Below are positions 47-6,456 of a DNA stretch of 6,456 nucleotides, piece by piece. The notes under the pieces are model-generated. The model did no database searches. It was not told the origin of the DNA and saw nothing but the letters and a program-made list of their open reading frames with translations. Every line of letters starts with the position of its first letter. The stretch's first letter is position 1. The translations under genes and the position numbers were made by a program. Origin of the DNA: a virus (Duplodnaviria; Heunggongvirae; Uroviricota; Caudoviricetes); IMG/VR virus record IMGVR_UViG_2529292728_000022, one strand, 5' to 3'.

Positions 47-3000
47 ATGGCGACGTTACGTGAACTGATTATCAAAATTTCGGCAAATTCACAGTCATTC
101 CAGTCGGAGATCCAGCGGGCGTCCCGTATGGGCAGTGAATATTACCGGACCCTGCAGAATGGCGGACGTCAGGCTGCTGCGGCAGCCAGGGAGCAGCGAC
201 GTGCCCTGGCAGAACTGAACAGCCAGTTGACGGAAATCCGCGCTTCGGCTGTCGGAATGACCGGTGCGTTTGCCGGTGCCTTTGCCACCGGACACCTGAT
301 TTCTCTGGCGGATGAGTGGAGTTCCGTGAATGCCCGTCTGAAACAGGCATCACAGTCATCCGATGAATTTTCGTCATCACAGAAAGTGCTGATGGATATC
401 AGTCAGCGGACAGGCACGGCATTTTCGGATAATGCGGCCCTGTTTGCCCGTTCGGCTGCCTCGATGCGTGAATATGGTTACAGTGCTGATGATGTGCTGA
501 AGGTGACGGAGGCCATTTCCACGGGGCTGAAAATCTCCGGTGCCAGTACGGCTGAGGCGGGTTCGGTGATCACCCAGTTCAGCCAGGCGCTGGCACAGGG
601 TGTGTTGCGCGGTGAGGAATTTAATTCGGTCAATGAAAGTGGTGACCGGATCATTCGTGCACTGGCTGCAGGCATGGGCGTGGCCCGTAAAGATCTGAAG
701 GCGATGGCGGACGACGGCAAACTGACGGCGGATAAAGTCGTGCCCGCGTTAATCAGCCAGCTGGGGACATTGCGTGATGAATATGCCGCCATGCCAGAAA
801 CGGTCTCTGACGGGATCACAAAGGTGGAAAACGCCTTTATGGCCTGGGTGGGTGGTGCGAATGAGGCCAGCGGGGTGACAAAAACGCTCTCCGGCGTGCT
901 GAACGGTGTTGCCGGACAGATTGATAATGTGGCAACAGCCGTGGGGGCACTGGTTGCCGTCGGGGTTGCCCGGTACTTTGGCAATATGGCCTCCGGAGCG
1001 ATGTCTGCCACGGCAGGACTTGTGACGGCTGCACGTAATGAAGTTGCACTGGCGGAAGCACAGTTCAGGGGAACGCAGATTGCCACGGCGCGGGCAAGAG
1101 CAGCCGTGTACCGTGCTCAGCAGGCCGTGGCGGCAGCCCGCGGGACGGAGATGCAGATTGCAGCAGAGGCCCGTCTGGCGGCCACACAGGAACGCCTGAA
1201 CAGAAATATTGCTGCCAGAACCGCCGCCCAGAATGCGCTGAACAGTACAACGGCGGTGGGCTCACGTCTGATGAGCGGTGCGCTGGGACTGGTTGGAGGC
1301 GTACCCGGACTGGTGATGCTGGGAGCTGCCGCATGGTACACGCTGTACCAGAATCAGGAACAGGCCAGGGAGTCTGCGCGCCAGTATGCACTGACGATAG
1401 ATGAAATCGCGCATAAAACGCCATCAATGTCTCTGCCTGAAGCCTCAGATAACGAAGGGCGAACACGGGCGGCGCTGACAGAGCAGAACCGGCTGATTGA
1501 TGAGCAGGCCAGCCGGGTGAAATCCCTGCAGGAAAAAATCGCCGGGTATCAGTATGTGCTGGCTAATCCGGGCTGGACGACCGGTAACGGCTTCATGATA
1601 AACCATCTGACCTCGGTGAAGACCGTAACGGAAGGGCTTGCTCAGGCAACAGAGCAGCTTGCCGTTGAGCAGTCCCGTCTGGCACAGATGCAGGAAAAAG
1701 CGCAGTCCATTCAGGATGTGCTTGCCGGGCTGGAAGACCGTCGTGTGGCGTTAATTCGTCAGCAGGCGGCAGAGCAGAATAAGGTGTACCAGTCCATGCT
1801 GGTTATGAACGGTCAGCATACGGAATTCAACCGTCTGCTGGGGCTGGGTAATGAACTGCTTCAGCAGCGGCAGGGACTGGTGAATGTGCCGTTACGGCTG
1901 CCACAGGCCACTCTGGATGATAAACAGCAGAGTGCCCTGACAAAAACAGAGCGTGAGCTGGCCCTGTCCAGACTGAAAGGGGAAGAAAAAGAGCGTGTCC
2001 GGCTGGGGTATGCGGCGGATGACCTCGGTTTTGTGGGTGATCCGTATCAGGAGGCGAGACAACGTTATATCAGTAATGCCCTGGAAGCCTGGCGCAATAA
2101 CGAGGCGAATAAACCCAAATCCCGGGGTGGAAAATCAGAGACGGAAAAAGCGGAAGACAGTTTTTCCCGGCTGCTGAAGCAGCAGAAAGAGCAACTGGCA
2201 CTGGCCGGTCAGAACACGGAGCTGGCGAAGCTGAAGTACCAGACAGCGCTGGGTGAACTGAAAACCCTGTCGGAGATACAGAAGCAGGAGCTGCTGCGTA
2301 ACGCGGCCCTGATTGACCAGCAAAAAATCCGGGAACAGTTGCGATCCCGGGAAGAGACCCTGAAGAATGATAATGTGGCTGCGCGTGCATCAAATGAAGC
2401 CGAACTGCTGGGGTACGGGCAGGGAGAACGAGCCAGGGAACGCATGCGGGAGTTGCAGCAGATCCGCGACAGCTTCCGCCAGAAGGATGCGGACCTTCAG
2501 TCTCAGTATCAGACCGGGGATATCAGTGAGGATTTTTACAGACAGGCGCTGGCGCAGAATGCACAGTATCTGAGTGAACGTCTGAAAGAGCAGGAAGCCT
2601 TTTATGCCGAATCGGATGTGCAGCGTGCGGACTGGCAGAAAGGGCTGCAGGAGGGATTCAGTAACTGGGTGGATAATGCGTCCGATTACGCCTCACAGGC
2701 AGCACAGCTTGCGACGGAGGGTATCTCAGGGATGGTGAATAACATCACGGAGATGCTGAACGGAAATAAAGTGGAATGGCGCAGCTGGGCCTCATCAGTG
2801 CTGCAGGAAATATCAAAAGTTCTTATGAATGCCGCGATTGTCAACGGAATTAAGACGGCGGCAAACGGTATGTCCGGTGCGGGAGGATTTCTCGGCAGCA
2901 TTGGTGACTGGCTGGGCGGGGCGGTGGCCAATGCAAAAGGCGGCGTGTATACCTCGGCAAACCTGAGTGCGTACAGCAACAGTATTGTGGATACGCCCAC

Positions 3001-3289
3001 GTACTTTGCCTTTGCAAAAGGGGCCGGGCTGATGGGGGAGGCCGGACCTGAAGCCATTATGCCTCTGACGCGGGCGGCGGATGGCTCGCTGGGTGTGCGA
3101 GCGGTGGGCAGTATGAACGGTAGTGCGGGTCTGGTGTATTCCCCGGTCTACCATATCGCCATTCAGAATGACGGGACTAATGGCCAGATAGGGCCGGAAG
3201 CTGCGGGCACCCTTGTGCAGCTGATTGACCAGCGGGTGCAGGCGGTGATGCTGTCCATGCGACGTGACGGAGGAATGCTGAGTGGCTGA
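47..3289 (+). CDS. H: Tail length tape measure protein (lambda gpH functional equivalent), 1080 aa
   Basis: Longest ORF, directly upstream of M-L-K-I-J homologs (the lambda position of H). ATG at 47 with GGAG SD. Ala/Gln/Arg/Glu-rich low-complexity helical sequence typical of tape measures, with hydrophobic Gly/Ala-rich segments (e.g. ...GALVAVGVARYF..., ...SGALGLVGGVPGLVMLGAAAWY...). The C-terminal region (...NDGTNGQIGPEAAGT...MRRDGGMLSG) matches my recollection of the lambda gpH C-terminus. The N-terminal two thirds do not look lambda-like to me. Confidence 0.88.
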   Translation: MATLRELIIKISANSQSFQSEIQRASRMGSEYYRTLQNGGRQAAAAAREQRRALAELNSQLTEIRASAVGMTGAFAGAFATGHLISLADEWSSVNARLKQASQSSDEFSSSQKVLMDISQRTGTAFSDNAALFARSAASMREYGYSADDVLKVTEAISTGLKISGASTAEAGSVITQFSQALAQGVLRGEEFNSVNESGDRIIRALAAGMGVARKDLKAMADDGKLTADKVVPALISQLGTLRDEYAAMPETVSDGITKVENAFMAWVGGANEASGVTKTLSGVLNGVAGQIDNVATAVGALVAVGVARYFGNMASGAMSATAGLVTAARNEVALAEAQFRGTQIATARARAAVYRAQQAVAAARGTEMQIAAEARLAATQERLNRNIAARTAAQNALNSTTAVGSRLMSGALGLVGGVPGLVMLGAAAWYTLYQNQEQARESARQYALTIDEIAHKTPSMSLPEASDNEGRTRAALTEQNRLIDEQASRVKSLQEKIAGYQYVLANPGWTTGNGFMINHLTSVKTVTEGLAQATEQLAVEQSRLAQMQEKAQSIQDVLAGLEDRRVALIRQQAAEQNKVYQSMLVMNGQHTEFNRLLGLGNELLQQRQGLVNVPLRLPQATLDDKQQSALTKTERELALSRLKGEEKERVRLGYAADDLGFVGDPYQEARQRYISNALEAWRNNEANKPKSRGGKSETEKAEDSFSRLLKQQKEQLALAGQNTELAKLKYQTALGELKTLSEIQKQELLRNAALIDQQKIREQLRSREETLKNDNVAARASNEAELLGYGQGERARERMRELQQIRDSFRQKDADLQSQYQTGDISEDFYRQALAQNAQYLSERLKEQEAFYAESDVQRADWQKGLQEGFSNWVDNASDYASQAAQLATEGISGMVNNITEMLNGNKVEWRSWASSVLQEISKVLMNAAIVNGIKTAANGMSGAGGFLGSIGDWLGGAVANAKGGVYTSANLSAYSNSIVDTPTYFAFAKGAGLMGEAGPEAIMPLTRAADGSLGVRAVGSMNGSAGLVYSPVYHIAIQNDGTNGQIGPEAAGTLVQLIDQRVQAVMLSMRRDGGMLSG

Positions 3290-3623: not shown

Positions 3624-4321
3624 TGCAGGATATTCACGAAGAAAGCCTGAACGAGTCGGTTAAATCAGAGCAGTCACCGCGGGTGGTGCTCTGGGAAATT
3701 GACCTGACGGTGCAGGGTGGTGAGCGGTATTTTTTCTGCAATGAGCTGAATGAAAAAGGGGAGGCGGTTACCTGGCAGGGGCGGCAATATCAGGCATACC
3801 CGATTGACGGCAGTGGCTTTGAGATGAACGGGAAGGGCAGCAGTGCCCGCCCGTCGCTGACGGTGTCGAATCTGTTCGGTCTGGTCACCGGAATGGCGGA
3901 GGACCTGCAGAGCCTGGTGGGGGCCACGGTGGTCCGCCGCCGGGTGTATGCCCGTTTTCTGGATGCGGTGAATTTTGTGGCGGGCAATCCGGAAGCGGAC
4001 CCGGAGCAGGAGCTGAGCGACCGCTGGGTGGTGGAGCAGATGTCAGAGCTGACGGCCATGACAGCCTCGTTTGTGCTGGCAACACCGACGGAGACGGACG
4101 GAGCGCTGTTTCCCGGTCGCATTATGCTGGCGAATACCTGTATGTGGGATTACCGGGGAGATGAATGCGGGTATAACGGTCCTGCGGTGGCGGATGAGTT
4201 CGACAACCCCACCACGGATATCCGTAAGGACAGATGCAGCAAGTGCATGCGCGGGTGTGAGATGCGCGGCATGGTGGCTAATTTTGGCGGTTTCCTTTCC
4301 ATTAATAAACTTTCGCAGTAA
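3623..4321 (+). CDS. L: Minor tail / tail tip protein L (lambda gpL homolog), 232 aa
   Basis: ATG at 3623 overlaps the M stop as TGATG and is preceded by AGGTGG (3610-3615). The N-terminus MQDIHEESLNE...VVLWEIDLT...ERYFFCNE matches recalled lambda gpL; the C-terminus has the clustered cysteines (C..C..CxxC..C) and ends GGFLSINKLSQ. The TTG at 3596 offered by the ORF track is rejected as the start. Confidence 0.88.
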   Translation: MQDIHEESLNESVKSEQSPRVVLWEIDLTVQGGERYFFCNELNEKGEAVTWQGRQYQAYPIDGSGFEMNGKGSSARPSLTVSNLFGLVTGMAEDLQSLVGATVVRRRVYARFLDAVNFVAGNPEADPEQELSDRWVVEQMSELTAMTASFVLATPTETDGALFPGRIMLANTCMWDYRGDECGYNGPAVADEFDNPTTDIRKDRCSKCMRGCEMRGMVANFGGFLSINKLSQ

Positions 4322-4331
4322 ATCCCGGTTT

Positions 4332-5075
4332 ATGACACAGACTGAATCAGCGATTCTGGCGCATGCCCGGCGGTGTGCGCCTGCGGAGTCGTGCGGCTTC
4401 GTGGTGAGAACGCCGGAGGGGGAGCGGTATATCCCTTGTGTGAATATCTCTGCAGAGCCGGAGGCGTATTTTCGTATCGCACCGGAAGACTGGCTGCGGG
4501 CAGAGATGCAGGGGGAGATTGTGGCACTGGTCCACAGTCATCCCGGTGGTCTGCCCTGGCTGAGCGAGGCCGACCGGCGGCTGCAGATAAAAAGTGCACT
4601 GTCCTGGTGGCTGGTCTGCCGGGGGGAAATTCATAAATTCCGCTGTGTGCCACATCTGACAGGACGGCGCTTTGAGCACGGGGTGACGGACTGTTACACG
4701 CTGTTCCGGGATGCATACCATCTGGCGGGAATTGATATGCCGGATTTTGAGCGTGAGGATGACTGGTGGCGCAACGGTCAGAACCTGTACCTGGACAATA
4801 TGGAGGCGACTGGTTTTTACAGGATTTCCCTGCCTTCCGCACAGCCTGGCGATATCCTGCTGTGCTGCTTTGGCGCATCGGTGGCCAATCATGCCGCCAT
4901 ATACTGCGGCAACGGTGAGCTGCTTCACCATCTGCCTGAACAACTGAGTAAACGGGAGAGGTATTCCGAAAAATGGCAACGACGAACGCATTCAGCCTGG
5001 CGTCACCGCCACTGGCACGTATCTGCCTTCACGGGGATTTACAACGATTTGGCCGCCGCCTCAGCCTGTATGTGA
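4332..5075 (+). CDS. K: Tail tip assembly protein K (lambda gpK homolog), JAB/MPN + NlpC/P60 domains, 247 aa
   Basis: ATG at 4332, 10 nt after the L stop. The N-terminus MTQTESAILAHARRCAPAESCGFVV matches recalled lambda gpK. A JAMM motif is directly visible (HSHPGGLPWLSEAD = H-x-H-x7-S-x2-D), as are NlpC/P60-type Cys and His contexts (GVTDCYTLF ... NHAAIYCG). The ORF-track start at 4071 lies inside L in another frame and is rejected. Confidence 0.85.
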   Translation: MTQTESAILAHARRCAPAESCGFVVRTPEGERYIPCVNISAEPEAYFRIAPEDWLRAEMQGEIVALVHSHPGGLPWLSEADRRLQIKSALSWWLVCRGEIHKFRCVPHLTGRRFEHGVTDCYTLFRDAYHLAGIDMPDFEREDDWWRNGQNLYLDNMEATGFYRISLPSAQPGDILLCCFGASVANHAAIYCGNGELLHHLPEQLSKRERYSEKWQRRTHSAWRHRHWHVSAFTGIYNDLAAASACM

Positions 5076-5653
5076 ACACGGCAGCGGAAGCCATCCGTGC
5101 CCTGTCGATGCAGATGCCGGGATTCCGCCGTCAGATGAACGAAGGCTGGTACCAGATACGTATTCGCGGTGAGGACACGGCACCGGAGGCGGTGTACGCC
5201 CGTCTTCACGAACAGCTGGGTGAGGGAACGGTCATCCACATTGTGCCGCGACTGGCCGGGGCCGGAAAGGGTGGACTGCAGATTGTGCTGGGGGCGGCAG
5301 CCATCGTGGGCTCTTTCTTCACTGCCGGGGCATCAATGGCGTTATGGGGTTCAGCCCTGGCAGCCGGTGGTTTTTCTGCCACCACGATGCTGTTTTCACT
5401 GGGGGCCAGCATGATTCTGGGTGGTGTGGCTCAGATGCTGGCCCCGAAGGCTAAAGTACCGGAGTACAAAAGCACGGATAACGGCAGACAGAACACGTAC
5501 TTTTCCTCGCTGGATAACATGATTGCCCAGGGGAACCCGATGCCGGTGCCTTACGGTGAAATGCTGGTTGGCTCCCGGCGAATCTCCCAGGACATCAGTA
5601 CCCGTGATGAAGGCGGTGGCGGAAAGGTCGTGGTTATCGGGCGGCAGGGGTAA
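4973..5653 (+). CDS. I: Tail tip assembly protein I (lambda gpI homolog), 226 aa
   Basis: ATG at 4973, in a different frame from K and overlapping its last 103 nt. The N-terminal segment (...ARICLHGDLQRFGRR...AIRAL...GWYQIRI...VIHIVPRLAGAGKGG) fits the gpI ubiquitin-like region and is followed by a Gly/Ala-rich hydrophobic segment. The end ...QNTYFSSLDNMIAQGNPMPVPYGEMLVGSRRISQDI matches recalled lambda gpI. Stop TAA at 5651-5653. Confidence 0.8.
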   Translation: MATTNAFSLASPPLARICLHGDLQRFGRRLSLYVNTAAEAIRALSMQMPGFRRQMNEGWYQIRIRGEDTAPEAVYARLHEQLGEGTVIHIVPRLAGAGKGGLQIVLGAAAIVGSFFTAGASMALWGSALAAGGFSATTMLFSLGASMILGGVAQMLAPKAKVPEYKSTDNGRQNTYFSSLDNMIAQGNPMPVPYGEMLVGSRRISQDISTRDEGGGGKVVVIGRQG

Positions 5654-5654
5654 A

Positions 5655-5685
5655 AAGAATAAAAAAATCCCGCAGAGTTGCGGGG
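5655..5685 (-). terminator. Rho-independent terminator on the - strand at the left edge of the I-J gap
   Basis: Seen in sequence: on the - strand, stem cccgca(5684-5679) / loop acuc / ugcggg(5674-5669), with a possible extra G-U pair, followed by UUUUUUUAUUCUUUUU (+ strand A-run 5652-5667). On the + strand the hairpin is followed by acagacaaag, so it is not a + strand terminator. The U-tract overlaps the stop codon of I. Confidence 0.5.
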
Positions 5686-5752
5686 ACAGACAAAGATTAA
5701 CGTTAAGGAGTTATTTTTGTTTCTGGTGCTCGGGCAAAAAAAACATTAACGC
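5655..5752 (-). ncRNA. Candidate ~100-nt small RNA (moron-like) transcribed leftward between I and J
   Basis: Inference from a - strand promoter (-35 at 5781-5786, -10 at 5759-5764) with a predicted start near 5752 and the - strand terminator at 5655-5685. No ORF with a plausible RBS in the transcript. Contains a 16S-3'-end-like CUCCUU motif and internal self-complementarity (5' CGUUAA vs UUAACG). Confidence 0.22.
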
Positions 5753-5758
5753 AGAGAA

Positions 5759-5786
5759 ATTATTAGCACCACAGTCAGTTTGTGAA
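5759..5786 (-). promoter_or_regulatory. Candidate sigma70 promoter on the - strand (TTCACA-N16-AATAAT)
   Basis: Seen in sequence: - strand -35 TTCACA (+ coords 5781-5786, 5/6 to TTGACA), 16-nt spacer, -10 AATAAT (+ coords 5759-5764, 5/6 to TATAAT), with an AT-rich stretch upstream. A G lies 7 nt downstream of the -10 (about + 5752). Confidence 0.3.
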
Positions 5787-5823
5787 AATGTGAAGATATT
5801 CAGAAGTTTTATTCAATCATGAT

Positions 5824-5854
5824 ACAGGCATCCTCCGGGATGCCTGTTGTTTTT
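5824..5854 (+). terminator. Rho-independent terminator on the + strand, 35 nt upstream of the J start
   Basis: Seen in sequence: perfect 10-bp stem acaggcatcc(5824-5833) / loop tccg / ggatgcctgt(5838-5847), followed by tgttttt (5848-5854). On the - strand the same hairpin is followed by AUCAUGAUUGAAU, which is not U-rich, so it is + strand specific. Confidence 0.55.
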
Positions 5855-5888
5855 GTGCGTAACAGTTATCACAGTAAAGGGTGAGACA

Positions 5889-6456
5889 ATGGGCAAAGGT
5901 GGCGGCAAGGCGCACACGCCGGTAGAGGCAAAGGACAATCTTAAGTCCACGCAGATGATGAGCGTGATTGATGCCATTGGTGAAGGGCCGATTGAAGGTC
6001 CGGTGAAGGGGCTGCAGAGTATCCTGGTGAACAAAACCCCGCTGACGGACACGGACGGTAATCCTGTGATACATGGTGTGACAGCGGTCTGGCGCGCCGG
6101 GGAGCAGGAGCAGACACCACCTGAAGGCTTTGAGTCCTCCGGGGCGGAAACCGCACTGGGCGTGGAAGTGACGAAGGCAAAGCCGGTGACGCGCACCATT
6201 ACGTCCGCGAACATTGACCGCCTGCGGGTCACCTTCGGGGTGCAGTCACTGTTGGAGACCACCTCAAAGGGCGACCGTAATCCCTCTTCTGTCCGACTGC
6301 TGATTCAGTTACAGCGTAACGGTAACTGGGTGACGGAAAAGGATGTCACCATTAACGGCAAGACCACCTCGCAGTTTCTGGCGTCGGTGATTCTGGATAA
6401 TCTGCCTCCCCGTCCTTTTAACATCCGGATGGTCCGGGAGACAGCGGACAGCACCT
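5889..6456 (+). CDS. J: Host specificity / central tail fibre protein J (lambda gpJ homolog), N-terminal ~189 aa only; continues beyond the window
   Basis: ATG at 5889 preceded by AAAGGGTGAG. The translation MGKGGGKAHTPVEAKDNLKSTQMMSVIDAIGEGPIEGPV...AGEQEQTPPEGFESSG...TITSANIDRL...TSKGDRNP...LPPRPFNIRM is open to the window end and closely matches the recalled lambda gpJ N-terminus. It is absent from the ORF track because it has no stop in the window. Confidence 0.9.
   Translation, partial: MGKGGGKAHTPVEAKDNLKSTQMMSVIDAIGEGPIEGPVKGLQSILVNKTPLTDTDGNPVIHGVTAVWRAGEQEQTPPEGFESSGAETALGVEVTKAKPVTRTITSANIDRLRVTFGVQSLLETTSKGDRNPSSVRLLIQLQRNGNWVTEKDVTINGKTTSQFLASVILDNLPPRPFNIRMVRETADST

Follow-up and report, generated by a model that had tools for sequence, protein, structure and literature searches.

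A Divergent Copy of a PasB-Type Small RNA Gene in the Spacer between Tail Genes I and J of a Lambda-Type Operon

Results and Discussion

The I-J Spacer and Its Surroundings

The window, which is the whole stretch of 6,456 nt analysed here (IMG/VR virus record IMGVR_UViG_2529292728_000022), carries a lambda-type tail operon on the + strand, in which an ORF of tape-measure size (47-3289) is followed by M, L, K, I, and the start of J. Using Pfam, a Phage_tail_L domain was found in L, and JAB and NlpC/P60 domains were found in K. The two genes bordering the spacer were also confirmed by Pfam: I, with a Lambda_tail_I domain, extends over 4973-5653 with its stop codon at 5651-5653, and J, with a GpJ domain, begins with the ATG at 5889. 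The I-J spacer is 235 nt long, and the GC content of the spacer and of the module within it is 37.5%, compared with 55-64% in the flanks. The corresponding spacer of lambda is 54 nt long, and the insert is absent from it.

According to the initial annotation of this DNA, a small RNA with a promoter and terminator of its own is encoded opposite to the tail operon. A promoter and a terminator were indeed found on the − strand of the spacer, with the whole predicted transcript lying inside it, and the RNA sequence quoted in that annotation is correct. The sRNA gene on the opposite strand of the I-J spacer is real, but it is of a known kind, namely a divergent copy of PasB/EcOnc22-24. The accompanying suggestion that it could be new did not hold, as loci of this type are already catalogued as PasB and very probably also as EcOnc22, EcOnc23, and EcOnc24.

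I-J spacers were gathered from 102 loci encoding relatives of the J N-terminus in lambdoid phage and prophage contigs. Spacers of 54-56 nt, which belong to lambda and its close relatives, contain no module, and those of 234-260 nt contain one module, as in the window. Spacers of 336-343 nt contain one module and an additional hairpin-terminator upstream of it on the − strand. Spacers of 851 nt have a − strand sodC gene in place of the promoter region, and of the RNA they retain the 3′ two-thirds, which lie after sodC.

Promoter and Upstream Box

A consensus scan of the − strand gave a sigma-70-type promoter, TTCACA-16 nt-AATAAT, at 5786..5759 with 10 of 12 consensus matches; the number of promoter-like sites in the region 5300-6200 was 2, compared with 0.5 ± 0.7 in shuffled sequences. 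Most alleles retain the −35 hexamer TTCACA (5781..5786), but two allele groups have TTTTCT or TTTCCG instead, which match the consensus poorly. The −10 hexamer AATAAT (5759..5764) is represented in the homologues by TATAAT, AATAAT, GATAAT, or TATCAT at the same position.

Upstream of the −35 hexamer on the same strand lies a box of the form TCTGA-N6-TCACA (5789..5804), which consists of CRP-like half-sites and whose function is putative. No other part of the module is as strongly conserved; its half-sites are invariant among 34 distinct modules, and the 6-nt spacer between them is variable. In the window, the box reads TCTGA-ATATCT-TCACA, with one mismatch to the CRP site, and its centre at about −44.5 from G5752, the predicted transcription start, is 3 bp off the canonical class II position of −41.5. 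A search for TGTGA-N6-TCACA with one mismatch returned this single match in the window, where 0.21 would be expected. Chimeras of PasB are more abundant in overnight LB cultures than during exponential growth in Dulbecco's medium (PMC8550237), which fits CRP control but fits many other explanations as well. A LexA box (CTG-N10-CAG) was considered as a reading of the upstream box, together with Fur and FNR as its regulators; judged by eye, the LexA pattern is not present in the box, and the Fur and FNR consensus sequences do not fit it.

Comparison of homologous spacers had been named in the initial annotation as a way of checking these signals. Among 34 distinct homologous modules, the body of the RNA varies, but the −10 hexamer, the 5′ GCGTTA, the terminator, and most of all the upstream box are retained, which shows that the module is more than a chance combination of signals.

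Anatomy and Folding of the Predicted RNA

The predicted primary transcript, an allele of the PasB family, is about 92 nt long (5661..5752, − strand), and its start at G5752 is derived from the distance to the −10 hexamer. The 5′ end published for PasB lies 15 nt downstream of the promoter-predicted start, and the 5′ end of the window RNA is uncertain for this reason. By analogy, a mature form of about 77 nt starting near 5736 would be produced if its 5′ end matches that of PasB.

Near the 5′ end, a run of eight U (5736..5743, − strand) is found, which is present in all alleles with 5-9 U; this variation in length rules out a conserved reading frame. Direct reading of the sequence further gives the A-rich stretch AGA-AAC-AAA-AAU-AAC (5710..5724, − strand), composed of A-R-N triplets, and comparable A-rich stretches are present in other alleles. 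Hfq is described as binding A-R-N repeats by Tree et al. (PMC4104026), and this stretch is, judged by its sequence, a possible site for the distal face of Hfq. It is followed by the pyrimidine motif CUCCUU (5705..5710, − strand), which is kept among the alleles only as AAYUCYYU, with CUCCUU, CUCCAU, UUCUCU, CUCCCU, and others as variants, and then by the linker UAAUCUUUGUCUGUC (5685..5699, − strand), which is unpaired in the fold and predicted to be single-stranded.

The transcript is predicted to end at an intrinsic terminator (5661..5684, − strand) recognised using the consensus scan, with a 6-bp stem of CCCGCA/UGCGGG and an ACUC tetraloop. In DNA, the hairpin CCCGCAACTCTGCGGG occupies 5684-5669 of the − strand and is followed by A and T7 (5667-5661), which corresponds in RNA to CCCGCAACUCUGCGGG with A and U7 after it (5684..5661), about 92 nt beyond G5752. 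The scan gave 4 terminator-like sites, compared with 0.9 ± 0.8 in shuffles, and the stem is nearly invariant in 25 alleles. An intrinsic terminator whose U tract has 4 or more residues is among the features by which sRNAs are called in the RIL-seq study (legend of table S6, PMC8550237); the window locus has U7 there, as well as a sigma-70-type promoter of its own.

The minimum-energy fold of the window RNA has an energy of −21 kcal/mol (z = −2.7), and it contains the stem CGUUAA/UUAACG, by which the 5′ domain had been suggested to be closed. The complementarity is therefore present and the stem forms in the window fold; however, it is not conserved across alleles. In 13-14 of 25 alleles, the three pairs at the centre of the stem do not form, none of the changes is compensatory, and the 5′ arm of this stem lies outside the transcript in the published 83-nt PasB (PMC8550237). 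RNAalifold applied to the 25 alleles returned the terminator only, with no covariation anywhere. In the terminator, the stem is almost invariant, so that covariation is not visible there, and because the terminator alone is returned, a conserved 5′ domain cannot be claimed. The predicted 5′ domains vary from allele to allele. The CUCCUU motif is mostly unpaired in the predicted ensembles, with probabilities of being unpaired of 0.5-0.94.

Homology to PasB

PasB is an 83-nt sRNA of prophage PP6 in EPEC O127:H6 E2348/69, encoded at NC_011601.1 1466343..1466261 on the − strand (PMC8550237 table S6). These coordinates lie between the gene for tail assembly protein I and gpJ of E2348/69, antisense to both. 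The spacers of E2348/69 and of the window can be aligned over their whole length with a column identity of 89%, and the predicted RNAs are 74% identical, with indels. When the 83-nt PasB was compared with the window using blastn at a word size of 11, a match of 75% over 77 nt was obtained (E = 2.7e-12), and an nhmmer profile built from 27 other alleles, with the window left out, matched 5752..5661 end to end (E = 1.9e-16). The position of PasB, the spacer alignment, and the profile match together indicate that the window feature is a homologue of PasB.

The two loci are alike in their I-J position and antisense orientation, as well as in the promoter, the 5′ GCGUUA, the U run, the A-rich stretch, the AACUCCUU motif, UGUCUGUCCCCGCA, and a terminator with U7. 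They differ in length at three places: relative to PasB, the window allele has 6-7 nt more near the 5′ end, after the U run, 4 nt less in the linker, which is the presumed seed, and 9 nt less in the terminator loop. The closest sampled relative of the window RNA is that of loci L042/L047, with 88% identity, and the main difference between them is 8 nt of the terminator loop that are missing in the window. The window allele could accordingly be weakened or retargeted, given this 8-nt deletion in the loop and the 4-nt deletion in the presumed seed.

PasB has been characterised in E2348/69. Its size on a northern blot is consistent with the RNA-seq coverage, and the RNA is unstable without Hfq, with log2 changes of −6.8 and −2.4 under two growth conditions (PMC8550237). 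It has 37 RIL-seq partners, 30 of which are CDS or 5′UTR, and it is the second RNA in 99-100% of its chimeras, which is the signature of an Hfq-bound sRNA (PMC8550237). The 3′ ends of the chimeras concentrate at the U tract. The partners include ler, bfpB, bfpI, perB, tolC, ftsZ, and fabR (PMC8550237).

No Rfam family matched the window at the gathering thresholds, and Rfam has no family for this sRNA; the same tool found AgvB and STnc100 in the Sakai loci used as a positive control. The best sub-threshold match, Hrs1 on the + strand, reached 22 bits of the 56 needed and covered only the A run and the hairpin, and it was taken as a chance match. PasA, PasC, and PasD were excluded as identities by their gene neighbourhoods, which contain Q, lysis, esterase, and RusA genes. 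AgvB and AsxR were also set aside, as their site is the moron site downstream of PR′ and no Rfam match to them was found in the window.

Relation to EcOnc22-24 of EHEC Sakai

EcOnc22, EcOnc23, and EcOnc24 were discovered by Hfq-CRAC and northern blot (PMC4104026). They lie in prophages Sp15, Sp14, and Sp11 of Sakai, measure about 85 nt on northern blots, and are destabilised without Hfq (PMC4104026 table S2). When their positions are placed in the current Sakai record, each of the three falls in an I-J spacer, on the strand opposite to the tail genes.

The published coordinates refer to an older genome version and, if used unchanged, are about 130 nt away from the PasB-like RNA. The shift between the genome versions was estimated using three anchors, namely AgvB1 at 1.94 Mb (+137 to +146), STnc100/EcOnc06 at 3.49 Mb (+99 to +227), and the difference in total length between the two versions (+128). 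With a shift of 128-146, the EcOnc22 peak moves to 2902842-2902920, inside the predicted PasB-like RNA at 2902836-2902926. EcOnc22-24 are thus very probably the Sakai members of the PasB family, an assignment based on the deduced coordinate shift rather than on published sequences. In the literature consulted, no statement of a link between PasB and EcOnc22-24 was found, and the PasB row of table S6 (PMC8550237) names no EHEC homologue.

The Hfq-CRAC peaks of Sakai lie in I-J spacers, where the window module is also found, and the Sakai loci share with the window the antisense orientation and the architecture of the module. The Sakai allele is 69% identical to the window RNA, and it differs in a poorer −35 hexamer, TTTCCG, and in a different 5′ part, GCAUUACUUUUUUGAUGCCUG.

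Breadth and Distribution of the Family

Across alleles, the conserved elements are the upstream box TCTGA-N6-TCACAUUUU, the −10 hexamer, the 5′ GCGUUA, the U run, the A-rich stretch, the pyrimidine motif, UUAAUCUU, and the stem and U tail of the terminator. Variation is found between the U run and the pyrimidine motif and in the linker after UUAAUCUU. The sample contains at least 44 distinct RNA alleles, and tandem arrays of 2-3 modules occur on four contigs. When phage contigs were scanned for the upstream box, 125 copies were obtained, of which 118 adjoin I and/or J in the antisense orientation.

A 261-nt query that covers the whole I-J spacer of the window has matches of 99% identity or more in 50 records of complete E. 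coli genomes and a match of 100% in strain 2013C-4187 (NZ_CP027546.1), and it matches in some form in 1121 of 5426 genomes, at up to 7 places per genome, where the matches are not necessarily full modules. The window RNA minus one U is present in 3 phage contigs. A search of genome contigs for relatives of J returned mostly lambda DNA (with a 77% identical J) in the assemblies of unrelated organisms, and these contig matches consequently give little information on host range.

A census of PasB reported 1,158 hits with variants a few nucleotides apart (Zhu, Shabalina and Storz 2026, bioRxiv 10.64898/2026.05.13.724894), using a BLAST word size of 28 and a query coverage above 75% (Zhu et al. 2026). 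With the 83-nt PasB as the query at this word size, no match was found in the window, where the longest exact word shared with PasB has 16 nt; a BLAST search with words of 28 nt therefore misses the window allele. The window allele is a homologue of PasB and yet falls outside the operational definition of that catalogue (Zhu et al. 2026). As diverged alleles such as that of the window are missed by these settings, the comparison suggests that the family is undercounted in the published distribution of PasB.

Seed Region and Targets

The single-stranded stretch before the terminator has been proposed as the seed of PasB (Zhu et al. 2026, bioRxiv 10.64898/2026.05.13.724894). A small test of complementarity was made with fragments of 8 RIL-seq partners of PasB, using scans of 12-nt windows and counts of exact 7-mers. 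Enriched complementarity was found only at nt 48-61 of PasB, AUCUUCAUUUGU, where the mean z was −1.7 and 5 of the 8 partners were below −1.5. For the 7-mers UCUUCAU and CUUCAUU, complements are present in 3 of the 8 partners, which was equalled in 25 of 1000 shuffles; among the examples, the pairing with tolC runs across the start codon (UGCAAAUGAAGAA), and that with ydbJ lies near the ribosome-binding site. Five of the eight fragments (tolC, ydbJ, trmJ, ftsZ, and yrdD) span start codons. When the 19-nt linker was scored as a whole, the individual results were weak, with best shuffle fractions of 0.09-0.10, and full-length duplex prediction between PasB and its partners gave long, loop-ridden duplexes with no signal. 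These results are only suggestive; they point weakly to the linker as the likeliest seed, in agreement with the published proposal, and they lend no support to CUCCUU in this role.

At the position of this linker, the window allele has AAUCUUUGUCUGU, and the allele has lost both CUUCA motifs of PasB, which are altered to CUUAA and CUUUG. As the presumed seed differs, the targets of the window allele, judged by its sequence, probably differ from those of PasB.

Proposed Mechanism and Alternative Explanations

We consider it probable that the insert in the I-J spacer is the gene for an Hfq-dependent, trans-acting sRNA of the PasB/EcOnc22-24 family, which is expressed from the silent prophage. 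The anatomy, homology, conserved position, and allelic diversity were computed here, and the expression, Hfq dependence, and partners are those of homologues; for the window allele itself, we infer expression, Hfq binding, the position of the 5′ end, and the targets. A moron-like insert of about 170 nt would carry the gene, and host RNA polymerase would transcribe it from its own sigma-70-type promoter, opposite to the tail operon. Because this promoter is its own and lies on the opposite strand, the sRNA would be made while the prophage is silent. The initial annotation had likewise expected expression independent of late transcription, and this agrees, by analogy, with the detection of the homologue PasB in uninduced E2348/69 cultures by RNA-seq, northern blot, and RIL-seq (PMC8550237). 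Transcription would stop at the intrinsic terminator of the module and leave the U7 tail. In analogy to PasB, Hfq may bind and stabilise the RNA through the 3′ hairpin and the U tail, and perhaps through the A-R-N stretch, and the sRNA may then act in trans by pairing with mRNAs of the host and of virulence genes, in many cases where translation starts. It would most likely pair through the single-stranded linker that immediately precedes the terminator.

An effect mainly in cis, in which the RNA pairs with the late I-J mRNA during lytic growth and thereby tunes J or triggers cleavage of the duplex, or in which its convergent transcription interferes with late transcription, is unlikely in our judgement, although the RNA is by construction fully complementary to the spacer of the late mRNA. 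Such a role in cis would account for the fixed position of the module, which is needless for action in trans: the 118 of 125 box copies beside I and/or J are always antisense. However, PasB is found on Hfq with 34 mRNA partners elsewhere in the genome while the prophage is uninduced (PMC8550237), and the insert is missing from lambda and many of its relatives. The RNA overlaps neither coding region, and more than 130 nt separate it from the ribosome-binding site of J; in the 851-nt spacers the 3′ part of the RNA is still kept with sodC in place of the promoter. A role in cis does not exclude action in trans as well. The initial annotation had pointed to CUCCUU, which is present at 5710-5705, as a mimic of the anti-Shine-Dalgarno sequence in 16S rRNA; a seed formed by this motif, masking ribosome-binding sites from within a domain closed by the 5′ CGUUAA/UUAACG stem, appears distinctly improbable. 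A pyrimidine-rich motif occurs at the same place in all alleles and is mostly unpaired in the predicted ensembles, several PasB partner fragments span translation start regions, and the overlapping PasB 6-mer CCUUCA is complemented in 4 of the 8 partners. This last count is not significant, being equalled in 91 of 1000 shuffles, and the 12-nt windows over the motif showed no enriched complementarity to the 8 PasB partners, with a mean z of 0 to +1. The motif itself varies between alleles, and the closing stem is neither conserved nor accompanied by compensatory change.

A decaying or inert copy, in which the promoter and the hairpin are kept by descent and deletions have abolished a stable or functional RNA, would be in keeping with the 8 nt of the terminator loop missing relative to the nearest allele, L042, and the 4 nt of the linker missing relative to PasB. 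We regard it as very improbable, since the terminator, although shortened, remains of textbook form (5 G-C pairs in its 6-bp stem, a tetraloop, and U7), the promoter matches the consensus at 10 of 12 positions, the spacer query is at least 99% identical in the 50 complete E. coli genome records, and the same RNA, one U shorter, recurs in the 3 phage contigs. A tiny protein is scarcely credible, although both frames that might encode one exist in the window allele, namely a frame of 11 codons that starts with AUG at the 5′ end of the − strand RNA and a short + strand frame after AAGGAG at 5705-5710, which is a perfect Shine-Dalgarno sequence and precedes a TTG codon by 6 nt. In the − strand frame, the AUG is replaced by GUG or CAG or is absent in other alleles, the U run of 5-9 nt shifts the frame between alleles, and the leader has just 6 nt and lacks a ribosome-binding site. 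In the + strand frame, the frame, start codon, and peptide differ between alleles, and AAGGAG simply mirrors the pyrimidine motif of the − strand, to which it is complementary. As neither start codons nor frames are kept across alleles, the coding readings are rejected, and the earlier description of the RNA as non-coding was borne out.

For the Hfq-dependent sRNA, a broader proposal is quite possible, and we stop short of calling it probable. The I-J spacer may be a dedicated slot for an sRNA family that is larger and more variable than the PasB catalogue and includes EcOnc22-24. Its members would share the box, the promoter, and an Hfq-type terminator and would have a diversified body and linker, giving differently targeted sRNAs under a common, possibly CRP-like, control. 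The window allele would then be a retargeted member and not a synonym of PasB.

Relation to Other Systems and Significance

A PasB-family sRNA gene can be annotated here with confidence in place of an unexplained spacer. The main value of the analysis lies in the unrecognised breadth of the family and in the probable link between PasB and EcOnc22-24, by which EPEC PasB and the EHEC RNAs are very probably one family. The alleles differ exactly at the presumed seed. If they differ in their targets, related regulators are present as a set in those STEC and EPEC strains that have several prophages of this kind. This would bear on strain-to-strain differences in the Hfq-dependent control of virulence genes, as ler, bfp, and per transcripts are among the partners of PasB.

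AgvB and AsxR of EHEC prophages (RF02702 and RF02703) are likewise short, Hfq-bound sRNAs of lambdoid prophages that are expressed from silent prophages, and they also combine a conserved 3′ module with variable 5′ parts. Unlike the RNA described here, they have a length of 51-60 nt, sponge core sRNAs, and are encoded beside stx, at the moron site that follows PR′. The lambdoid late-operon morons described by Juhala et al. (2000), as cited in PMC4104026, resemble the window insert in being AT-rich, in having their own promoter and terminator, in lying between genes that are adjacent in lambda, and in being expressed from the prophage. The window insert is unlike them in that its cargo is an RNA instead of a protein and in that it is oriented against the operon.

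Upstream Box and 5′ End of the sRNA

The sRNA module of the I-J spacer, which comprises an upstream box, a promoter, the RNA, and a terminator on the − strand, has as its most conserved element the box TCTGA-ATATCT-TCACA (window 5789-5804, − strand). Across alleles, the 6-nt spacer of the box varies and the half-sites are invariant, and TCTGA/TCACA differs from the half-sites of the CRP consensus by one mismatch. The centre of this CRP-like box is located at about −44.5 relative to the predicted start and does not coincide with the canonical position of −41.5. For PasB, the Hfq-bound sRNA of EPEC E2348/69 of which the predicted window RNA is a divergent homologue, chimeras in overnight LB exceeded those in exponential culture in Dulbecco's medium (PMC8550237).

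The published 5′ end of PasB, which was derived from RNA-seq coverage (PMC8550237), lies 15 nt downstream of the promoter-predicted start (2344 vs. 2359 in L001, the E2348/69 locus), where the prediction rests on a perfect TATAAT combined with TTCACA as the −35 hexamer. The offset reflects either processing of the RNA after the U run or imprecision of the end taken from coverage.

PasB-Like Genes in Sakai and in Longer I-J Spacers

The Hfq-bound RNAs EcOnc22, EcOnc23, and EcOnc24 of EHEC Sakai (Tree et al. 2014) very probably match PasB-like genes located at 2902836-2902926, 2676767-2676857, and about 2166816-2166906 of NC_002695.2; the published EcOnc coordinates belong to an older version of the genome, with an offset of about 130-146 nt. 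A statement of this connection was not found in the literature searched.

Among the sampled lambdoid loci, the I-J spacers of 851 nt (L002, L033, L063, and L085) carry on the − strand a Cu/Zn superoxide dismutase-like gene (sodC), assigned by eye from the sequence, which occupies the position of the sRNA promoter; beyond it come the 3′ two-thirds of a PasB-like RNA, terminator included. The 3′UTR of sodC could be the source of the PasB-like RNA in these spacers. The spacers of 336-343 nt (L015, L070, and others) contain 100 additional nt between the module and J, with a strong − strand hairpin-terminator, AAACCCCGGUAUC...GAUACCGGGGUUUU; another small transcript may therefore be encoded here, upstream of the gene for the PasB-like RNA.

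Two or three modules are arranged in tandem between I and J in L127 (about 9950-10330), L170 (about 4540-5110), L184 (about 4150-4530), and L204 (about 7420-7800), where every module comes with a conserved box of its own and almost every one with a separate terminator. In the arrays of two modules (L127, L184, and L204), the module adjoining J differs in its body and also in its terminator (CCUCCCG...CGGGAG and a U run), and no −10 hexamer is recognisable in it at the usual spacing.

Features of the + Strand

The complement of the − strand pyrimidine motif forms a perfect AAGGAG on the + strand, 6 nt ahead of the TTG with which a 10-codon frame begins (window 5705-5749). Other alleles have ATG or TTG at this place, but the frames differ and the peptides are unrelated; the AAGGAG and the short frame probably exist as a side effect of the − strand motif. 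The Rfam match to Hrs1 opposite the sRNA (window 5660-5722, + strand) is weak, at 22 bits compared to the 56 needed (E = 0.05); it depends on the A run and the hairpin and probably arises by chance.

Just upstream of J, within the late operon, a terminator-like + strand hairpin, ACAGGCATCC-TCCG-GGATGCCTGT (window 5824-5847), is followed by TGTTTTTGTG, the T-rich tail extending to 5857. One stem pair changes between T-A and C-G among alleles, and both single-change intermediates occur. In the 54-nt spacer of lambda, this position is likewise taken by a hairpin with a T-rich run after it, but the lambda hairpin is different from that of the window.

Lambda-type I-J regions were also present in contigs labelled as unrelated organisms (L082, L085, L087-L099, and others), including Streptomyces, Neobacillus, Shewanella, and Bradyrhizobium. 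The spacer in these contigs is mostly lambda's own, of 54 nt, and the regions look like contaminating lambda or E. coli DNA in the assemblies.
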